DNA from: Candidatus Saccharimonadota bacterium
GTDB lineage: Bacteria > Patescibacteriota > Gracilibacteria > BD1-5 > UBA2023
Assembly: GCA_963706795.1 (NCBI GenBank)
Contig: OY970170.1
Span: 120,001 to 152,000 of the forward strand
Direction: 5' to 3'
DNA: 32,000 nucleotides
Shown: positions 6,262 through 31,626 of the stretch, one piece after another
Position numbering within the stretch: position 1 is the stretch's first letter
Layout: each line of letters opens with the position of its first letter
Position numbers and translations under genes: made by a program
The notes under the pieces: generated by a model
Databases searched by the model: none
What the model was told of the DNA's origin: nothing
The model's input: the letters and a program-made list of their open reading frames with translations, nothing else

Positions 6262-7533
6262 ATGGGTTTTGCAGACAGCTTTAAAAAATCGTCCTCGGCC
6301 AGCACAAACACCGACAGTCTCATGCAGACTGCCGGAGGTATTAGTGCCGCCGAAACTGAAATGGACGCAGTAAGCATGATTTTTGCAGATGCCATCCGTC
6401 TCGGAGGATCGGATATTCATATCGAACCGAACGAATCCGACATTTGCGTACGTATCCGAGTAGATGGACACTTCGTTGAGAGCACGCGACTTCCACTCGA
6501 GCAAAAGAGCTCTATTGTGGCACGTATCAAGATTTTGGCGAGCCTCAAGATCGATGAGCAGCGCCTCCCTCAAGATGGAAAGGCTTCATTTCGAGATGTT
6601 ACGACTGGCAAGGATGTAGACCTTCGCGTCAGCATCATGCCTAATATTTATGGCGAAAAAGTCGTAGTTCGAATCCTCAAAAAAGAGTCTTCCCTGCTCG
6701 ATCTCCGATCAGTTGGAATTCTCCCGATGAATATGGTTCGCATCCGTAAATATCTCGAGGGAAGTCACGGGCTCATTCTTGTCGTTGGACCCACTGGATC
6801 TGGAAAGTCGACAACGCTCTACAGCATGCTCTCGACCTATGATCCCGAGGACAACAATATCTCAACACTCGAAGATCCAGTCGAATACCGCATCCCTGGG
6901 GTTAATCACACTCAGATCTATCCAAATATCGGATTTAATTTTGCAGATGGACTCAGGTCACTTTTGCGACAGGATCCGGACATTATCATGGTCGGAGAAA
7001 TCCGCGACGGAGAGACTGCTCATCTCGCGATCGAGGCTTCGATTACGGGTCATCTCGTGTTTTCGACGATTCACGCGAATTCAACTGTGAATACGCTTCA
7101 GCGTTTAACCAATCTTGGGATTGATCCGCTGCTTTTGGTTTCTTCGCTCAAACTCGTCATCTCACAGCGTCTTGCTCGCAAACTCTGTCCACATTGCCGC
7201 ATCGCCTACGATCCAGAGCCTTCTACCAAAGAAAAGATCGTCTCTCGCATCGGCAAATATATGACCGAAAAGGAGAATTTTAAACTCTACAAACCCAATC
7301 CCGAAGGCTGCGAAAAATGTAAGCACAAAGGATATAAGGGTCGAGTCGGACTCTTTGAAATCCTCGAAATGACCGAAGGCCTCGAAAAACTCATCCTTGC
7401 AAAGGCTTCAAAAACACAACTCGAAGTCCAAGCGATCGGCGATGGCATGGTACATATCAAAGATGACGCCCTCATCAAGGTCGTACTTGGTGAAGTAAGT
7501 CTTGAGGAAATTTTGCAGGTCCTCTGAGGATAA
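6262..7533 (+). CDS. Type II/IV secretion (type IV pilus assembly) ATPase of the PilB/GspE family, short form
   Basis: GSDIHIEP, Walker A GPTGSGKSTT, an Asp box, Walker B IIMVGEIRD and a tetracysteine cluster (CPHC…CEKC). An in-frame TAG lies just upstream of the ATG. The track stop TGA (7525-7527) reads as Gly, so the protein ends …LQVLGG with TAA at 7531-7533. Confidence 0.88.
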
Positions 7534-24935: not shown

Positions 24936-24982
24936 AAAAAAAATCACCTGATCGTAATAGATCAGGTGATTTTATTTATTTT
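24936..24982. terminator. Bidirectional terminator between convergent genes
   Basis: 13-bp stem AAATCACCTGATC / GATCAGGTGATTT (24941-24972), flanked by an A-run and a T-run. Confidence 0.7.
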
Positions 24983-26438
24983 AAAATGTTCCTTTGAGTC
25001 CGACATTGTAGACTGGTCCGCTTGATTTTCAATCTATGCGATCCTGGCGAACTCCTGCAAATACATCAATACTAGGACCCTTCCACACTCCGAGTTTTTT
25101 GGTTACTTCGAGCCCCACTCGACTTGAGTCGCTTGGTCCAAGTGGACTCTTGCCAGTTGAGCGGATAATCTCAGTGTAGGCACTTGCGGACATGTTCATG
25201 TTTCGAAGTGTAGCCTGTGCTTTGGAAGTATTTGCGAGTGCAGATACTTCTCGACTTACTGCGAGATCAAATGCACTTCCCTTCTCATTATCCTTGTGGG
25301 TGATGCCACCATATACCGTGTTTGATCCATAGGTATTTGGTGTATCCGTGGCTCCACTTTGGAGATTTGGGACGATATTTCTTGTGTGGATAACTCCGGC
25401 ATGGACTGCAGTCTTGGGATCGAGTACATACTTTGCTTGTACATTTCAGGAGACTGCCACTTCTCCAACCTGTCCTTTCCTCAGACCATGAATACTGAGA
25501 TCGAGATGATCTGCTAGTTGTACTTTTGCCTTAGTAGTCAATCCTGTCTCGATAGAGAAAGTATCGTTCACTGGCCATATCTTTGAGACTCCTGCCTGAG
25601 CTGCCGCTGCGTAGTAATCCCGACTCACATCTTTCTCTGAACCAATGCGCGTTTTTGAGACATTTATTTCACCAAAACCACGCAGGAGTTCATTACCTGA
25701 TTCGTATCCGAGGGTTGTATGAATCGTCTGAAGTTTGAGTCCTGCGATCTCATTTTCCTTGTATCCGATGCCTGCATATGTACCACCGATGTGCTTGTTA
25801 AGTGCAATTCGTTTCCCACGATTGGTGAGTTCAAATTCTACACCTTCTGGCATGTTTGATGGTTTTTTGAGCCAAGATTCTACATCGCGCATCGTGAACA
25901 TTTGTGCATTTACCTCGCGGTTGAGCGGAGTCTGGATTGCACCGATGATATCCCCTTTGTCGTTAGCGAGATAGTTGGTGAAGACATAGTTCTTGTTTTT
26001 TACTGCGTAGGTATCGAGGGCTTCTTCGATATTTCTCCCTGTATAAAGTACTCAATAGTCGGAGAATACAGTCTTATCTGCTACCTTCATAACAGTAATC
26101 GCATGTCCTAAATCCTGACCACCCACCGTTACAACTCCTGCGTCAATTCCCCATGCATTTGCCACTTGGGCAACCGTCGCATGGATACCAGTACAGACAC
26201 TCAGTGGAAGAGATTGTTCGCTGTAAGTGGCTTGTGCAAGATTGGAGAACTGTTTACCGAGTGTGGGAACTGGGAGAGGCTTCCCTGTTTGTGCTGTTTC
26301 TTGGTTGTAAGTAAACTTCAGGAGTTCACTTCCTAAAATATCAAGGAAAATGATCTTCTCTTCTTTTGAAAGTGTAGATCAGATGCGTACGAGATTGTCG
26401 CGGACGTATTTCTCATTTGATGTGACAGAAACCTGCAT
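24981..26438 (-). CDS. Transglutaminase-like Cys-His-Asp domain fused to a beta-strand-rich C-terminal region ending …VYNVGLKGTF, about 485 aa
   Basis: One frame is open from 26516 to TAA 24981-24983, with 4 in-frame TGA codons downstream of the chosen start (a fifth lies between the two start candidates), and it contains track ORF 25446..25901. Candidate triad: SVCTGIHATVAQVANAWGID, GHAITVMKV and FSDYG. The last ~330 aa have alternating hydrophobic residues and a terminal Phe. The start is ATG 26436-26438 or 26481-26483. Confidence 0.55.
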
Positions 26439-27459
26439 CAGAGGGAAGCGATGTAATAGCAAGGAGATTTTCTCCGTATGCATTCTGTGCTTTAATTGTA
26501 TGACTGCGCACTTTTTCTATATCGTACTTTTCATGGAAAATATCTCAAAAAGCGACCATATTTCATCTTAATTGATCCTCAATAGATCATTTAAGAAAGG
26601 TGAAACGATTTCTGAGCGCTTCCTCACTTTGTCCAACACTCCTATTAAGAGCAGATTCGGCTATAGCCTTTAAGCTATAGAGTCCATCTCTGCCAGACAA
26701 CTTAGTCTTTGCATCATTTTGCTTCTTGCTTATATCTGCAAGCTCAGCACTGTGGTCATTAATATATTTTCTTTCTGCATTGAGTGCCTTTATGAGCTCC
26801 TGGATCTTTGGATCATTGCTCTTTACAAAATACTGATCAGAGTCAGCATTAAATCCAATAAGATCTCCATTAGCGGCGGCAATATAGTCTGTCGATAAAT
26901 CATGTCCTGTTTTTGCCTTGTAAGAATCTATAATCGCCGAATATCCGTCTTGAAGAATCTTTCATTGTTTGTTCGTGACTTCAATAATAGCCTCAAGTGG
27001 CACAATGTCATTTGTTATTTTTTTAAGCGCTTCGATACTTGCAGTTTTATCCACAAGAGCAGCACTAAGTCTGCGCTCACCTCATGCAAAGTCTGGAGCA
27101 AAAGCACTCGCATATTCAGTGCCTCCAAGAGTTGGTAGATTACTTTTGGATTGATAACCAAATTTCATACTCACCGGAAAGGCGGGATCTTTGCTTGCCG
27201 CCTTAATAATATCTGCCCGAGCCTTCAGACTTTCTTGGGTCATATCAAGACGAGCTGCAGACGTATCAGCAAGGCTATCGAGTGAAACTTTCGTATCTTT
27301 CTCGCCCTTCTTTTCTGGAGCAGGCGGCAGATCTAAAGGATCAGGAATATCAAATCCACTATATGGATCAGTATCGTATGATGGAAGTTCGAGGGTCATA
27401 AACAAAGAATGTGAACTAATGTGTACTGATTTTCTGCAGAACTGCGACGTGTCACTCAT
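26254..27459 (-). CDS. Hypothetical protein, about 400 aa; its 3' end overlaps the next gene in the +1 frame
   Basis: Track ORF 27082..27522 continues through 6 TGA codons with no TAA or TAG until 26254-26256. Start candidates are ATG 27457-27459 (MSDTSQF…) and ATG 27397-27399 (MTLELPSYD…). The last ~55 codons look non-protein-like. Confidence 0.5.
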
Positions 27460-27610
27460 GTTCTTTTTGAAGAGAGCGAATAATGCGCATCTGAGTCTTT
27501 GGCTGCATCTTGGGGAATGCATCGCTCAAAAGTGCCTTCTCTTTATCATCAAAAGCGCAGGAACGAGCCATATAGAGCTCCATGAGTCGGTGGATCTGTG
27601 AATATTGCAT
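27359..27610 (-). CDS. Small hypothetical protein, about 83 aa
   Basis: MQYSQIHRLMELYMARSCAFDDKEKALLSDAFPKMQPKTQMRIIRSLQKEHE, then TGA (27452-27454). Under table 25 the frame runs on to TAG 27359-27361. A promoter-like element lies upstream. Confidence 0.4.
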
Positions 27611-27629
27611 ATGTCTGGTTATATCACAA

Positions 27630-27658: not shown

Positions 27659-27816
27659 AAAACGACTCAAGCCAGCTGGATAAATTCGTAAAAGTGCAAA
27701 ATAATACGATTTACAGTGCACTAAACAAAAGATAACATCTTCTATTTGAGGTGTTCTCAGTTTGCACTCGTACAGAGAAAAGCTACAATCAAAACACTAT
27801 TCTCTTATAGCGCCAT

Positions 27817-28107
27817 ATGAAGAGATTTGCCACTCTATTGCTCATAGCAATATCATTTTTTTGAAGCGCGTCCTTTGTCCAAGCAAAGACTTATTATACG
27901 GGCCCTAAAGGTGGATGTTACTCGTATTCTTCCTCAGGTAAGAAGGTTTATGTCTCGCACCAATACTGCTCTCGCAATGACGAAGGATCGAATGCAGTCT
28001 ACAATAGCAACACAAACAAGACCTATTACACAGGTCCAAAAAACGGATGCTTCTACTACGGAGCAAGCTTAAAGAAAATATATGTCTCACATACGTACTG
28101 TAACTAG
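27817..28107 (+). CDS. Secreted miniprotein with two Cys-containing repeats, 96 aa under table 25
   Basis: Signal peptide MKRFATLLLIAISFF-G(TGA)-SASFVQA/K. It is followed by two copies of YYTGPK(G/N)GC(Y/F)xY…KK(V/I)YVSHxYC. It stops on TAG at 28105-28107. It is not in the standard-code track. Confidence 0.6.
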
Positions 28108-28494: not shown

Positions 28495-31400
28495 CTAATT
28501 AAACCATCTTTTTGGTTTTGGATGAGCCTCAACTTGCTTCTGTAGAAGCTCGACTGCCTCAATGCCTTTCTCCATCTCGGCGACACTCTTGAGGCCAACG
28601 GGTGATTTTTTATCTACGATCTGTGCAAGTTTTGCGCGGACATCACGAACTACGGCAATTTCTTGTTTTCCTTCTGATCATTTATCCCCAAAGATGGCAT
28701 TCAGTTGAAATACATCATTATTCCATTTAGTATCCCACTTTGTTTCATTACCCGAAATGATTGCATCAAACTGCCTCTGGATTTTTGCAGGACTGAGATT
28801 GGCGAGTTTTTCCATAAAAATTGGATCGTTCTCGTGGGCATATTGGTACGAAAAATACGCAAGCGCGTCAATCATGGCATACGCTCATCGAAGCTCGTCG
28901 AATCTTGCGCGAATATCAGAACCTGACTCACTCAGACGAGTCTTTATATAAGCAGCTCAGCTTTTGCGAATGTCGAGGTATTGATTATTAACGTAAGCTA
29001 AGAGTTTTTGCTTTGCGATATCACCCTCAGGAGTGCTAAATGGCGCCATTTTTCTTCTGACAACATTGTCAGTAATAGCTGCTCTGCAAGGACCATAGTC
29101 TGCGCCATGACTCATGCCAATGCTCAACCCAAGGGAATCTTCAAAACAAGTATACGTAGTTACATACTCAAAGTTATCGCCATTACCGCCAGGATCTCGA
29201 TATCTTCATCCTCAGCCTGACCTTCATCTGACTATACGTGTTTTTTCAGTAATTCGAACCGAGAGGGTTCAATCGAATTTCAGGCTTGGTACTATAAATT
29301 GTGCTTTGGTATCAAAGGATTTATATACTAAATCTTTTTTAGCAAAGACCTTGATAATCCCTCGGTTTAAATCATCAGATGAACTGCTGACCACTTCTTC
29401 TTTTTTGCTGATAATCCAGTTTTTCAGCCCAGCATTTACAACATCTTCTTCTTTGTCGCTGGTGAGAAGAGGTTTTTGGAGACTGATCCCCACCATGGCA
29501 GCATCATGGGGCTGAGAAGCAGATAACAGAGATATTTCTTTTGTTTTCTGTTCTTCAAACTTACGAAGCTCTCGGTCGAGTTCTTCTAAAAATTTCTGAC
29601 GTTTTGTCTCATAGAGTTTGAGACTGAGATCAAAGAGAGAATTCTCGCGAATATCTGCGAGGCGAGCACTTTCGTCTTGGAGTGCTTGGAGTGTAGATTT
29701 GATATTGCGAATATTCACCTTATCAACCTCAGTAATACCGTGTGTACCGAGAAGTACGAGGTATTTATCCATAATCATTTTCATGATTTCTGGATTGACG
29801 AGCGACTCGCCTGAAGTCACGGGTGTCTCAAAATCGAGAATACCCCTCGAGGTGATATTTCGAACCATATTGATCGAGCCTTCCATTCCGCGATTTTGGA
29901 GTTCATTTGCAAAATCACGCAAGGCTGACTTCCTTGCTCTTCCTGTAAAATTATAGTTCGCCGCGTAGCTCGTTGCTAGATTGACGAGCCCTGATTTGCA
30001 AGAGACAAGATTACTCGTGTCATACCCATTTTTAGTCCAAGTTGTAGCCTGTGTATAGCAGCCTTGCAGTATACCGCCGTGAGTATTTCTAAAGAGGTCT
30101 TCTTGTATAATCATTTGATTATCCTGCAAATGACCGAGTGCGGCTGCGATTTGATCGAGACGATTCTTAATATCTGTTACATCACCCTGGATTTGGTCCA
30201 ATCTATCTAATACAATATCGAGTTTTTTATCTACACGATCAAAGCGCTCATGCATCTCTTTTTTAAGTTCGGAGATTTGTTTAGAGAGCTTTTCAAGCGC
30301 AGCCATTATTTGCTTATGCCTCTCTCCAGCAGGATCAGGTTTTTTAGCAAAGAGTCCTACGAGATTTACAGCCGCGCTCACCATGTTCCCTGTTGCAATT
30401 GAGCCAGCCATATCGCCTAATTTAAGCAGACTAATCGTCTCCATGACATTGACGAGATTGTCTGCGATGACCACTGCAGTTCAGATATCTCTTGCAGTCT
30501 CCGAATTCCCAAAAAGCTGTCCAAGACCCCGTGCTATATTCAAATAGTTACGAGTCTCTTGGTAAACTTCTTTAATCTGCTGCTTTTGAAGCATGAATGC
30601 CGCAGCAATAGCAGCTTCTTTTGCTTTAATGAGCACTTCTTGTTCAGCCTTTGCCTGTACATTTGTGAGCGTTTTGAGACCTTCGCGCATCACTTTTGCC
30701 TGAGCAACTAAATCAGCAAGCGTTTGAGCTTGGTTTTTGAGCGCATCTGTATTTTTACCAATCTTTTCCTGCATTTTCTTATTTACTTCATACAGACCAT
30801 CAGCCTTGTTGAGCAATAAGACAGTTGCTGGGTCCATGAAGCTCTTGTAATCAACCTTGGTGATATCTTTATCAATGAGCTGCTTTGTGAGAGCGCCAAG
30901 TAATTTTTGCTGATCTTTAGAAAGTCTCTCAGGATGATTGATGAGCTCTTGAATAAGTGGCTTTCCGATGTTTTCTGCAAATTTCTGGAACTTAAAATTT
31001 GCCTCCTGGCGAAGCATGTCTTCATCAATTTGAGCGTCTGTTTGCAGCTCTGCGAAAGATGATCAAACCGGAGAGAATGTTGTACTATTAGAGGCAAGCA
31101 CGATGGCCTCTTTTATAACCGACGTATATCCTATCATTTTACCAATAATCGACTCCGCGAGAGGAAATGCCTGATTCGCCAATATCGCCTTAGAGACCAT
31201 CTCTGCTGTATAACTCTGTGGGAGATGAGAGATCACTTTTGCAATATCTCTATCAGATATTTTTTGGCCATCACTTCTTGCCACCATCTTAATATTACTG
31301 TCAGTTTTGAGCAGTGCGAAAACAAACTGCTCCATCTTTCAGCTATCGAGCAGGGCTTTATTCACGTAGTCAGCAGTAAGCTGTTTTTCCATTATTTGAC

Positions 31401-31626
31401 GCTTCTCTATCTCGCTCGCATTCGCAATCGAAGGACTCGTCACCACTGGAGTTGCCAGTGTTGGCTGCGACTCCGCTGGCGATGCAAATGTGAGTGCTGC
31501 AGCAACTACCGCCCCCTGAATAGCGCTCGAAATAGATTTTCCTTCTCTATTTTTTGATGTGGGTACAAAAAAATCCCTCACCCCAAGGTTGTTCTGCATA
31601 ATTCCAAAGATGAAAAAATACTTCAC
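28495..31626 (-). CDS. Giant coiled-coil-rich protein of unknown function, about 1043 aa under table 25
   Basis: Track ORFs 31339..31626, 31063..31335, 30481..31017, 29269..30474 and 28678..28875 all share one frame. I translated every linker: they contain only TGA codons and no TAA or TAG. The stop is TAG at 28495-28497. The start is GTG 31626 or ATG 31599. The N-terminus has a hydrophobic stretch, AIQGAVVAAALTFASPA. Confidence 0.7.

Follow-up and report, generated by a model that had tools for sequence, protein, structure and literature searches.

The 32,000-nucleotide stretch of DNA analyzed here (hereafter the window) is positions 120,001 to 152,000 of contig OY970170.1 (assembly GCA_963706795.1), from a Candidatus Saccharimonadota bacterium that the GTDB places in the Gracilibacteria. 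Between window positions 24,981 and 27,610 it carries three open reading frames (ORFs), here termed A, B and C, which follow one another on the minus strand and in which UGA is read as glycine; all features described below are on this strand unless stated otherwise. Each frame is offset by +1 from the one preceding it, as was correctly noted in the original prediction, in which both frame junctions were placed exactly at UGA codons and were attributed to fossil UGA stops, to continued termination at UGA, to a +1 frameshift yielding a single fused protein or to indel errors in the assembly. According to the explanation proposed here, A is a small separate gene whose UGA is read as Gly and which ends at the TAG at 27416, and the next gene starts at the ATG at 27399. 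The latter is an ancestral gene of 805 codons, comprising both B and C, that would have been broken by one extra T in the run at 26431–26429. Past the break the old frame would continue for 58 meaningless codons, the fifth of which is the UGA at 26415, and the true frame would continue as ORF C.

Homology of ORFs B and C

Homologues of ORF C were found in a few related genomes, where C corresponds in each case to the latter half of one continuous ORF of 799–812 amino acids (aa). The comparison of relatives' loci for frame that had been proposed with the original prediction was carried out, and at least six relatives (P0003, P0004, P0005, P0006, P0008 and L022) keep B and C as a single ORF. The full-length forms are of 807, 799, 808, 812 and 837 aa, where the 837-aa homologue came from a search of 1.8 billion representatives, and the sixth, L022, which is truncated at its 5′ end and continuous, came from a scan of species genomes. 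In pairwise comparisons the similarity of B to the first halves of these relatives is weak. However, a tblastn search with P0005 places its residues 4–323 in the frame of B and residues 351–781 in the frame of C, and a profile built from the homologues matches the window twice and colinearly, at profile positions 5–206 in B (E value 2.5e-16) and 292–770 in C (6e-220). B and C thus correspond to successive stretches of a single protein in the same order, as do the fragments of genes disrupted by a frameshift.

These sequence comparisons show that a single ancestral gene of 805 codons is represented by B, its N-terminal half, and C, its C-terminal half. The native part of ORF B (26431–27399), delimited by the tblastn and profile matches and by the match of its start to that of a homologue, would provide codons 1–323, the N-terminal half, and the C-terminal half (24981–26429) would provide the remaining 482 codons and the TAA stop, with homology to P0003–P0006 beginning between 26447 and 26372 in the frame of C. 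In more distant homologues the C module alone is shared, beginning at profile position 296–300, which coincides with the start of C (292), and the N-terminal regions are different. The family is sparsely represented; it was found in 7 of the 401 genomes sampled in the class, and scans of metagenome contigs, with P0002 and with an alignment (A2), yielded no relative.

Position and nature of the frame break

At the second junction the frame of B reads ATC AAA TGA, with the TGA at 26415–26413, 23 nt past the ATG of C at 26438, and B runs on for 52 codons past this TGA to end at 26254, giving an overlap of 185 nt when counted from ATG 26438. All of this is as originally described. What does not hold is the placement of the junction exactly at the UGA, as the best-fitting break is in the T run 14 nt upstream (26429–26431; sequence context GGT TTC), where an extra T would constitute the real frame break. 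When one T of this run is left out, a single frame of 805 codons is obtained that is open, has no internal stop and is colinear with the relatives, with an identity to P0005 of 35% across 789 aligned positions. The restored junction reads SDAG-SVTSNEKY, compared to (Q)AGSVLTEADY in P0003. Every possible +1 switch point was scored against four homologues in summed BLOSUM units, and with all four the score peaks with 26431 as the last base in frame B, at a sum of 392 compared to 354–356 when the switch is placed at the UGA or immediately ahead of it.

Insights into this position were also provided by contigs from four public runs (X1–X4) that were aligned to the region, two of which (X1 and X2) represent identical strains and two (X3 and X4) related strains. 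The X3 contig aligns to 26285–26430, beyond which its 68 letters stand against 69 in the window (26431–26499), and the X4 contig aligns to 26430–26544, with 113 letters against the 114 of the window at 26316–26429. The alignments of X3 and X4, which are from different studies, end at 26430 from opposite sides and are each 1 nt short, as expected if these strains have TT instead of TTT, in a comparison that near this junction is one of alignment ends and lengths. From the modest preference in the homology scan together with the break points of the related-strain contigs, we infer that the extra base is this T.

The properties of the overlap are consistent with such a break. Both frames are open over 263 nt, which hold three TGAs of the upstream frame, and in the 230 nt shared by B and C (26254–26483) the codon-usage score is −8.6 in the frame of B and +16.8 in that of C. 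The end of B (26254–26430), consisting of 58 codons that include the three TGAs and a terminal TAA, would be an out-of-frame tail lying over the true frame C. The UGA of the second junction (26413–26415) would be the fifth out-of-frame codon after the break, and the ATG at 26436–26438, a putative restart codon for C, would be in the frame of C only because of the extra T. Neither the nearby UGA nor the length of the tail is remarkable since, in the +2 frame of the genes of this genome, TGA occurs at 38 and TAA or TAG at 29 per 1000 codons. The chance of a UGA within the first five out-of-frame codons is therefore ∼18%, and that of a 58-codon tail without a stop is also ∼18%. No direct repeat or duplication was found that could be the source of the six extra codons in the linker. 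A reading of the break as a four-letter word, GGTT specifying Gly, was considered and rejected, as GGTT also occurs in frame at codon 81.

The second junction is, we estimate with a probability of about 80%, the site of a one-nucleotide insertion in a single gene, the UGA being nearby by chance, and the gene is an ordinary frameshifted one that involves no new reading of UGA. Two of the original proposals are in part upheld by this. The idea of a single protein is correct to the extent that B and C derive from one ancestral gene, although ORF A is not part of it, its length is 805 rather than ∼870 residues and there is no sign of recoding. Similarly, an indel fits the second junction, where a single-base change restores the frame, although upstream of the UGA, and does not fit the first, which separates adjacent genes.

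ORF A and the first junction

ORF A (27416–27610) is an orphan gene encoding 64 aa that extends from the ATG at 27610, through a UGA at codon 53 that specifies Gly, to a TAG at 27418–27416. This TAG, which is 11 codons past the UGA, was missed in the original prediction, where A ran to 27359; the 31 additional codons and the 101-nt overlap between A and B do not exist. The sequence motifs cited in support were accurately read, namely ATGAGTGA at 27459–27452, ATGCGTAA at 601–594 and TGA GGA TAA at 7525–7533. A single X4 contig that is ∼86% identical to the window covers 27240–27621, and relative to it there are 10 synonymous and seven non-synonymous codon changes in the frame of A, with TGA to GGT among them. 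The UGA of the first junction (27452–27454) is accordingly an ordinary Gly codon inside ORF A, and the codons that precede and follow it show synonymous changes (CAT to CAC, GAG to GAA, CAC to CAT, GTC to GTT). That A starts at the ATG at 27610 rather than at a GTG at 27721 is argued for by the X3 contig, in which the longer frame is broken by indels at 27626, 27656 and 27740.

A search with ORF A yielded no homologue except its own 52-aa truncation, according to code 11, in the protein collection. This 52-aa form, which is cut at the UGA, indicates that the genome has been gene-called with UGA as a stop somewhere upstream. No ORF resembling A was found beside the B/C genes of the relatives, and no paralogues of A, B or C were found in the genome.

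Between the stop of A and the start of B there is a non-coding spacer of 16 nt (27400–27415), into which X4 has single-base insertions after 27401 and after 27410. The supposed 5′ extension of B (27459–27400) has, relative to X4, no synonymous and 13 non-synonymous changes, and in X4 its ATG has become ACG, a new TAG is present and two bases are inserted, while downstream of the ATG at 27399 the pattern is again that of coding sequence, with four synonymous and three non-synonymous changes. ORF B opens with MTLELPSYDTDPYSGFDIP at 27399 and its closest full-length homologue, P0005, opens with MTLLEKSDFNGSPYDGFDIP, likewise beginning MTL...YDGFDIP. Because X4 has lost the upstream ATG, gained a TAG and carries two extra bases in this supposed 5′ part, the comparison places the start of B at the ATG at 27399, 16 nt past the stop of A, such that A and B neither overlap nor share a frame junction. 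The first junction is a plain adjacency of two genes, and its appearance as a frame junction resulted from a missed TAG and the wrong start codon for ORF B.

Genetic code of the host genome

The host genome is a single contig of 1.27 Mb with a G+C content of 43.5% and is 97% complete. It contains a tRNA-Gly(UCA) and a gene for release factor 1 (RF1, prfA) that scores above the curated cut-off, and in a search of the genome for release factor 2 (RF2, prfB) the sole match was the prfA gene itself, below the cut-off, such that RF2 is absent. UGA occurs 3726 times in 761 long ORFs, equivalent to 10.6 per 1000 codons and to 15.6% of the Gly codons. Since tRNA-Gly(UCA) and RF1 are present, RF2 is absent and in-frame UGA is frequent, the genome translates by code 25, in which UGA encodes glycine. 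This code is described for the Gracilibacteria group in PMC8629427 (citing Campbell, 2013 and Rinke, 2013). The genome has the same characteristics as other members of the Gracilibacteria and Absconditabacteria, namely the tRNA-Gly(UCA), no RF2, many in-frame UGAs and exchange of UGA with GGT in a related strain, and differs from them in none, making it a standard example. The relatives that carry the same gene as B/C are titled Candidatus Gracilibacteria metagenome-assembled genomes (MAGs), and the homologues of B and C contain 29–30 in-frame UGAs each. In a genome-wide survey of codon position, UGA is enriched by only ∼15–20% in the last 50 codons of ORFs. There is no enrichment of a Shine-Dalgarno signal in the genome, where motifs of this type precede 12.5% of the starts compared to a background of 17%.

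Predicted domains of the protein

From its N- to its C-terminus, the ancestral protein appears to consist of a variable first half, a transglutaminase-like Cys-His-Asp domain and a beta-barrel. In the AlphaFold model of ORF C, which has a predicted local distance difference test score (pLDDT) of 87.8, an alpha/beta domain is followed by a barrel of ∼16 strands. When modeled alone (pLDDT 93.9), the transglutaminase-like domain (25869–26414, residues 9–190 of P0002) aligns by VIA-align with LapG (PDB 4fgo; Z 10.1, 142 residues, 4.1 Å), TglA (9crn; Z 9.2) and CPR-C4 protease (7pjo; Z 9.1), and also with vasohibin, the Z scores over these four ranging from 8.7 to 10.1. Cys82, His112 and Asp127 are invariant in five sequences, and the middle domain is accordingly predicted from the models to have a papain/transglutaminase-like core with a Cys-His-Asp triad. 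A Pfam search with B, C and 12 homologues gave no match to any curated family. The middle domain resembles enzymes of the LapG/BTLCP type in its predicted fold (Z 9–10) and in its invariant triad and differs from them in having no Pfam match and in being joined to a long N-terminal region and, on its C-terminal side, to an OmpG-like barrel.

The barrel, at about residues 199–485 of P0002 (24984–25844), matched OmpG (2f1c) in a Foldseek search with an E value of 1.2e-7 and a TMt of 0.59, and other outer-membrane barrels were also matched. All five sequences end in Phe, and the model of a closed antiparallel barrel ending in an aromatic residue is consistent with an outer-membrane type. A search of the 97%-complete genome for Omp85/BamA (PF01103) gave no match, while a control search was positive in seven diderm genomes; no hydrophobic signal sequence of the Sec type was seen at the N-termini by eye, no predictor having been run; and a literature search found nothing on beta-barrels in Gracilibacteria.

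Neighboring features

Directly past the stop of C there is a terminator-like hairpin with a T run (24940–24973). Upstream of A, an ORF of 1043 aa (28495–31626, minus strand) contains 10 in-frame UGAs and has only weak Pfam matches of a coiled-coil type (DUF1664, below the cut-off). Between it and ORF A lies an ORF of 96 aa on the plus strand (27817–28107) that has a signal-peptide-like start and contains a motif in two copies, KTYYTGPKGGCYSY...KKVYVSHQYC and then KTYYTGPKNGCFYY...KKIYVSHTYC. As the 1043-aa ORF is set apart from A, B and C by this plus-strand ORF, the four genes do not form one operon.

Alternative explanations

Several points weigh against the conclusion that B and C are one gene disrupted by a chance insertion in the T run. 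The junction is in a poorly conserved linker, where the T run is only modestly preferred to the UGA site on the basis of four sequences, and a shift at AAA-UGA likewise yields an open frame of 805 codons. The single open frame in X3 and X4 is deduced from lengths only. In addition, no same-strain contig spans 26429–26431, and a mutation and an assembly error cannot be separated by this means: the cover by X1 and X2 contigs leaves out 26355–26440, with that of X1 ending at 26441.

The explanation that survives best beside that of a real insertion is an error in the assembly or its consensus, with the organism itself having TT at 26429–26431 and an intact 805-codon gene. One base alone separates the assembled sequence from the full-length frame, with no other lesion in either half, X3 and X4 each have one base fewer near the break, and the same-strain contigs that were aligned do not reach it. 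However, a three-base run is an atypical context for indel errors, which weakens this explanation without proving a mutation. Moreover, the assembly is not ridden with indels. A crude genome-wide scan of same-strand ORF pairs, in which the B/C break ranks seventh, revealed at most about a dozen frameshift-like junctions among ∼1100 ORFs, a count that is an upper bound inflated by shadow ORFs and that includes at least one such artefact. Wherever contigs of X1 and X2 cover the window, they likewise differ from it at 0–2 positions, with the exception of one more diverged X2 piece beyond the end of C. We consider an assembly error to be unlikely, if worth keeping in mind, and the extra T to be probably a real mutation, leaving a small share for all other readings.

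A second alternative is that the break has been tolerated or favored by selection, such that the gene has undergone fission to give two proteins, an N-terminal half with a junk tail and a transglutaminase-like plus barrel half that starts at the ATG at 26438. This is prompted by a second split gene of the family, L024 in the Gracilibacteria MAG GFS_12111 (JAYSSB010000170.1; L024:62–2466), where overlapping ORFs at 62–1255 and 988–2466 are related by a −1 shift that appears to result from the loss of one A in TAT-AAT-AAC near nt 955; the close relative L022 is continuous there. This single-base change differs from that in the window and lies ∼20 codons upstream of the position corresponding to the T run, and two random breaks would be expected to be so close within 805 codons ∼5% of the time. 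An ATG is located at the break in both genes, and the C module shared by the distant homologues starts at a profile position that matches the start of C. These sequence data hint that breaks at this module boundary are tolerated. On the other hand, there are only two cases, both of them from MAGs, the junk tails of 58 and ∼95 codons do not appear to be selected, the start sites cannot be judged in a genome without a Shine-Dalgarno signal, and six relatives retain one ORF. Selected fission is a doubtful explanation, less probable than an assembly error. The same low probability covers the broader case that the break is a working arrangement of either kind, by fission at the module boundary or by a +1 shift of some ribosomes at AAA-UGA, of which fission is the more likely.

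Programmed +1 frameshifting would involve a pause of the ribosome on the UGA of AAA-UGA (26418–26413) and skipping of the U to give the full 805-aa protein, in the manner of prfB (CUU-UGA) and antizyme (UCC-UGA). A shift at this site does also produce the open 805-codon frame, and the +1 offset and the UGA near the frame change are features in common with those systems. However, the site here is not conserved, as the six relatives have a single frame and the two close strains X3 and X4 have one base fewer; the best-fitting break is 14 nt upstream of the UGA, with all four homologues scoring higher for a shift at the T run; and L024 shifts in the opposite direction. There is no stimulator resembling either a Shine-Dalgarno sequence, a signal not used in this genome, or a structural element, in that the predicted RNA fold of 26470–26340 is no better than that of shuffled sequences (z +0.82). 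The P-site codon would probably be poor as a slippery codon, since AAA would be expected to re-pair poorly with AAU, and UGA, at 15.6% of the Gly codons, is not rare but a common sense codon that is read nine times within the native sequences of B and C with no shift. Nothing on UGA frameshifting in the Gracilibacteria turned up in a literature search. Programmed frameshifting at this locus is unlikely, and we assign it very little probability.

Least credible of all is the proposal that UGA still terminates here, as a fossil or a context-dependent stop, such that A and B end at their UGAs in ordinary short overlaps, since RF2 is absent, the UGA of A is GGT in X4 with synonymous changes among those past it, the UGA of B is out of frame, beyond the break in non-coding-like sequence, and UGA is barely commoner near the ends of ORFs; neither the fossil stop nor continued termination finds support at this locus.

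ATGA junctions with long upstream tails, which make up five of the top 13 pairs in the genome-wide scan (for example upstream of recG, a DHH-family gene and a pilin-like gene), were considered as support for fossil stops and were dropped because the best of them proved to be a shadow ORF lying opposite a real gene. In that case, the shadow ORF, one of the pair L015:252–1211 (plus) and L015:276–839 (minus), mimics a gene that runs through an ATGA junction into recG. Long shadow ORFs opposite real genes are common under code 25, and the greedy picking of the longest ORFs is unreliable in this genome.

Implications

A gene disrupted by a one-base insertion is a familiar finding in many bacterial genomes and MAGs, and the B/C gene shares with these examples overlapping ORFs that match consecutive parts of one protein, a single base that restores the frame and a junk tail on the upstream ORF. 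It differs from the usual case in that the host uses code 25, that the tail reads through UGAs and is longer than the standard code would allow, and that a second, independent break is located nearby in another member of the family. The gene may now be either dead or made as two polypeptides, with C restarting at the ATG at 26438.

For annotation, the consequences are that A is a protein of 64 aa rather than the 52-aa truncation of code 11, that B starts at 27399 and that B and C would together be treated as one disrupted gene. More generally, under code 25 the junk frame created by a frameshift is stopped by TAA and TAG alone, so that the overlapping ORFs that result are unusually long, and when a UGA is nearby such overlaps can wrongly pass for recoding. 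The B/C gene itself appears, from the structural models, to represent an unnamed and sparsely distributed family in which a transglutaminase-like domain and an OmpG-like barrel are combined in one protein, which is a minor lead. A functional or recoded split, if it were one, would add a little to current knowledge of gene fission or frameshifting in organisms with reassigned genetic codes.

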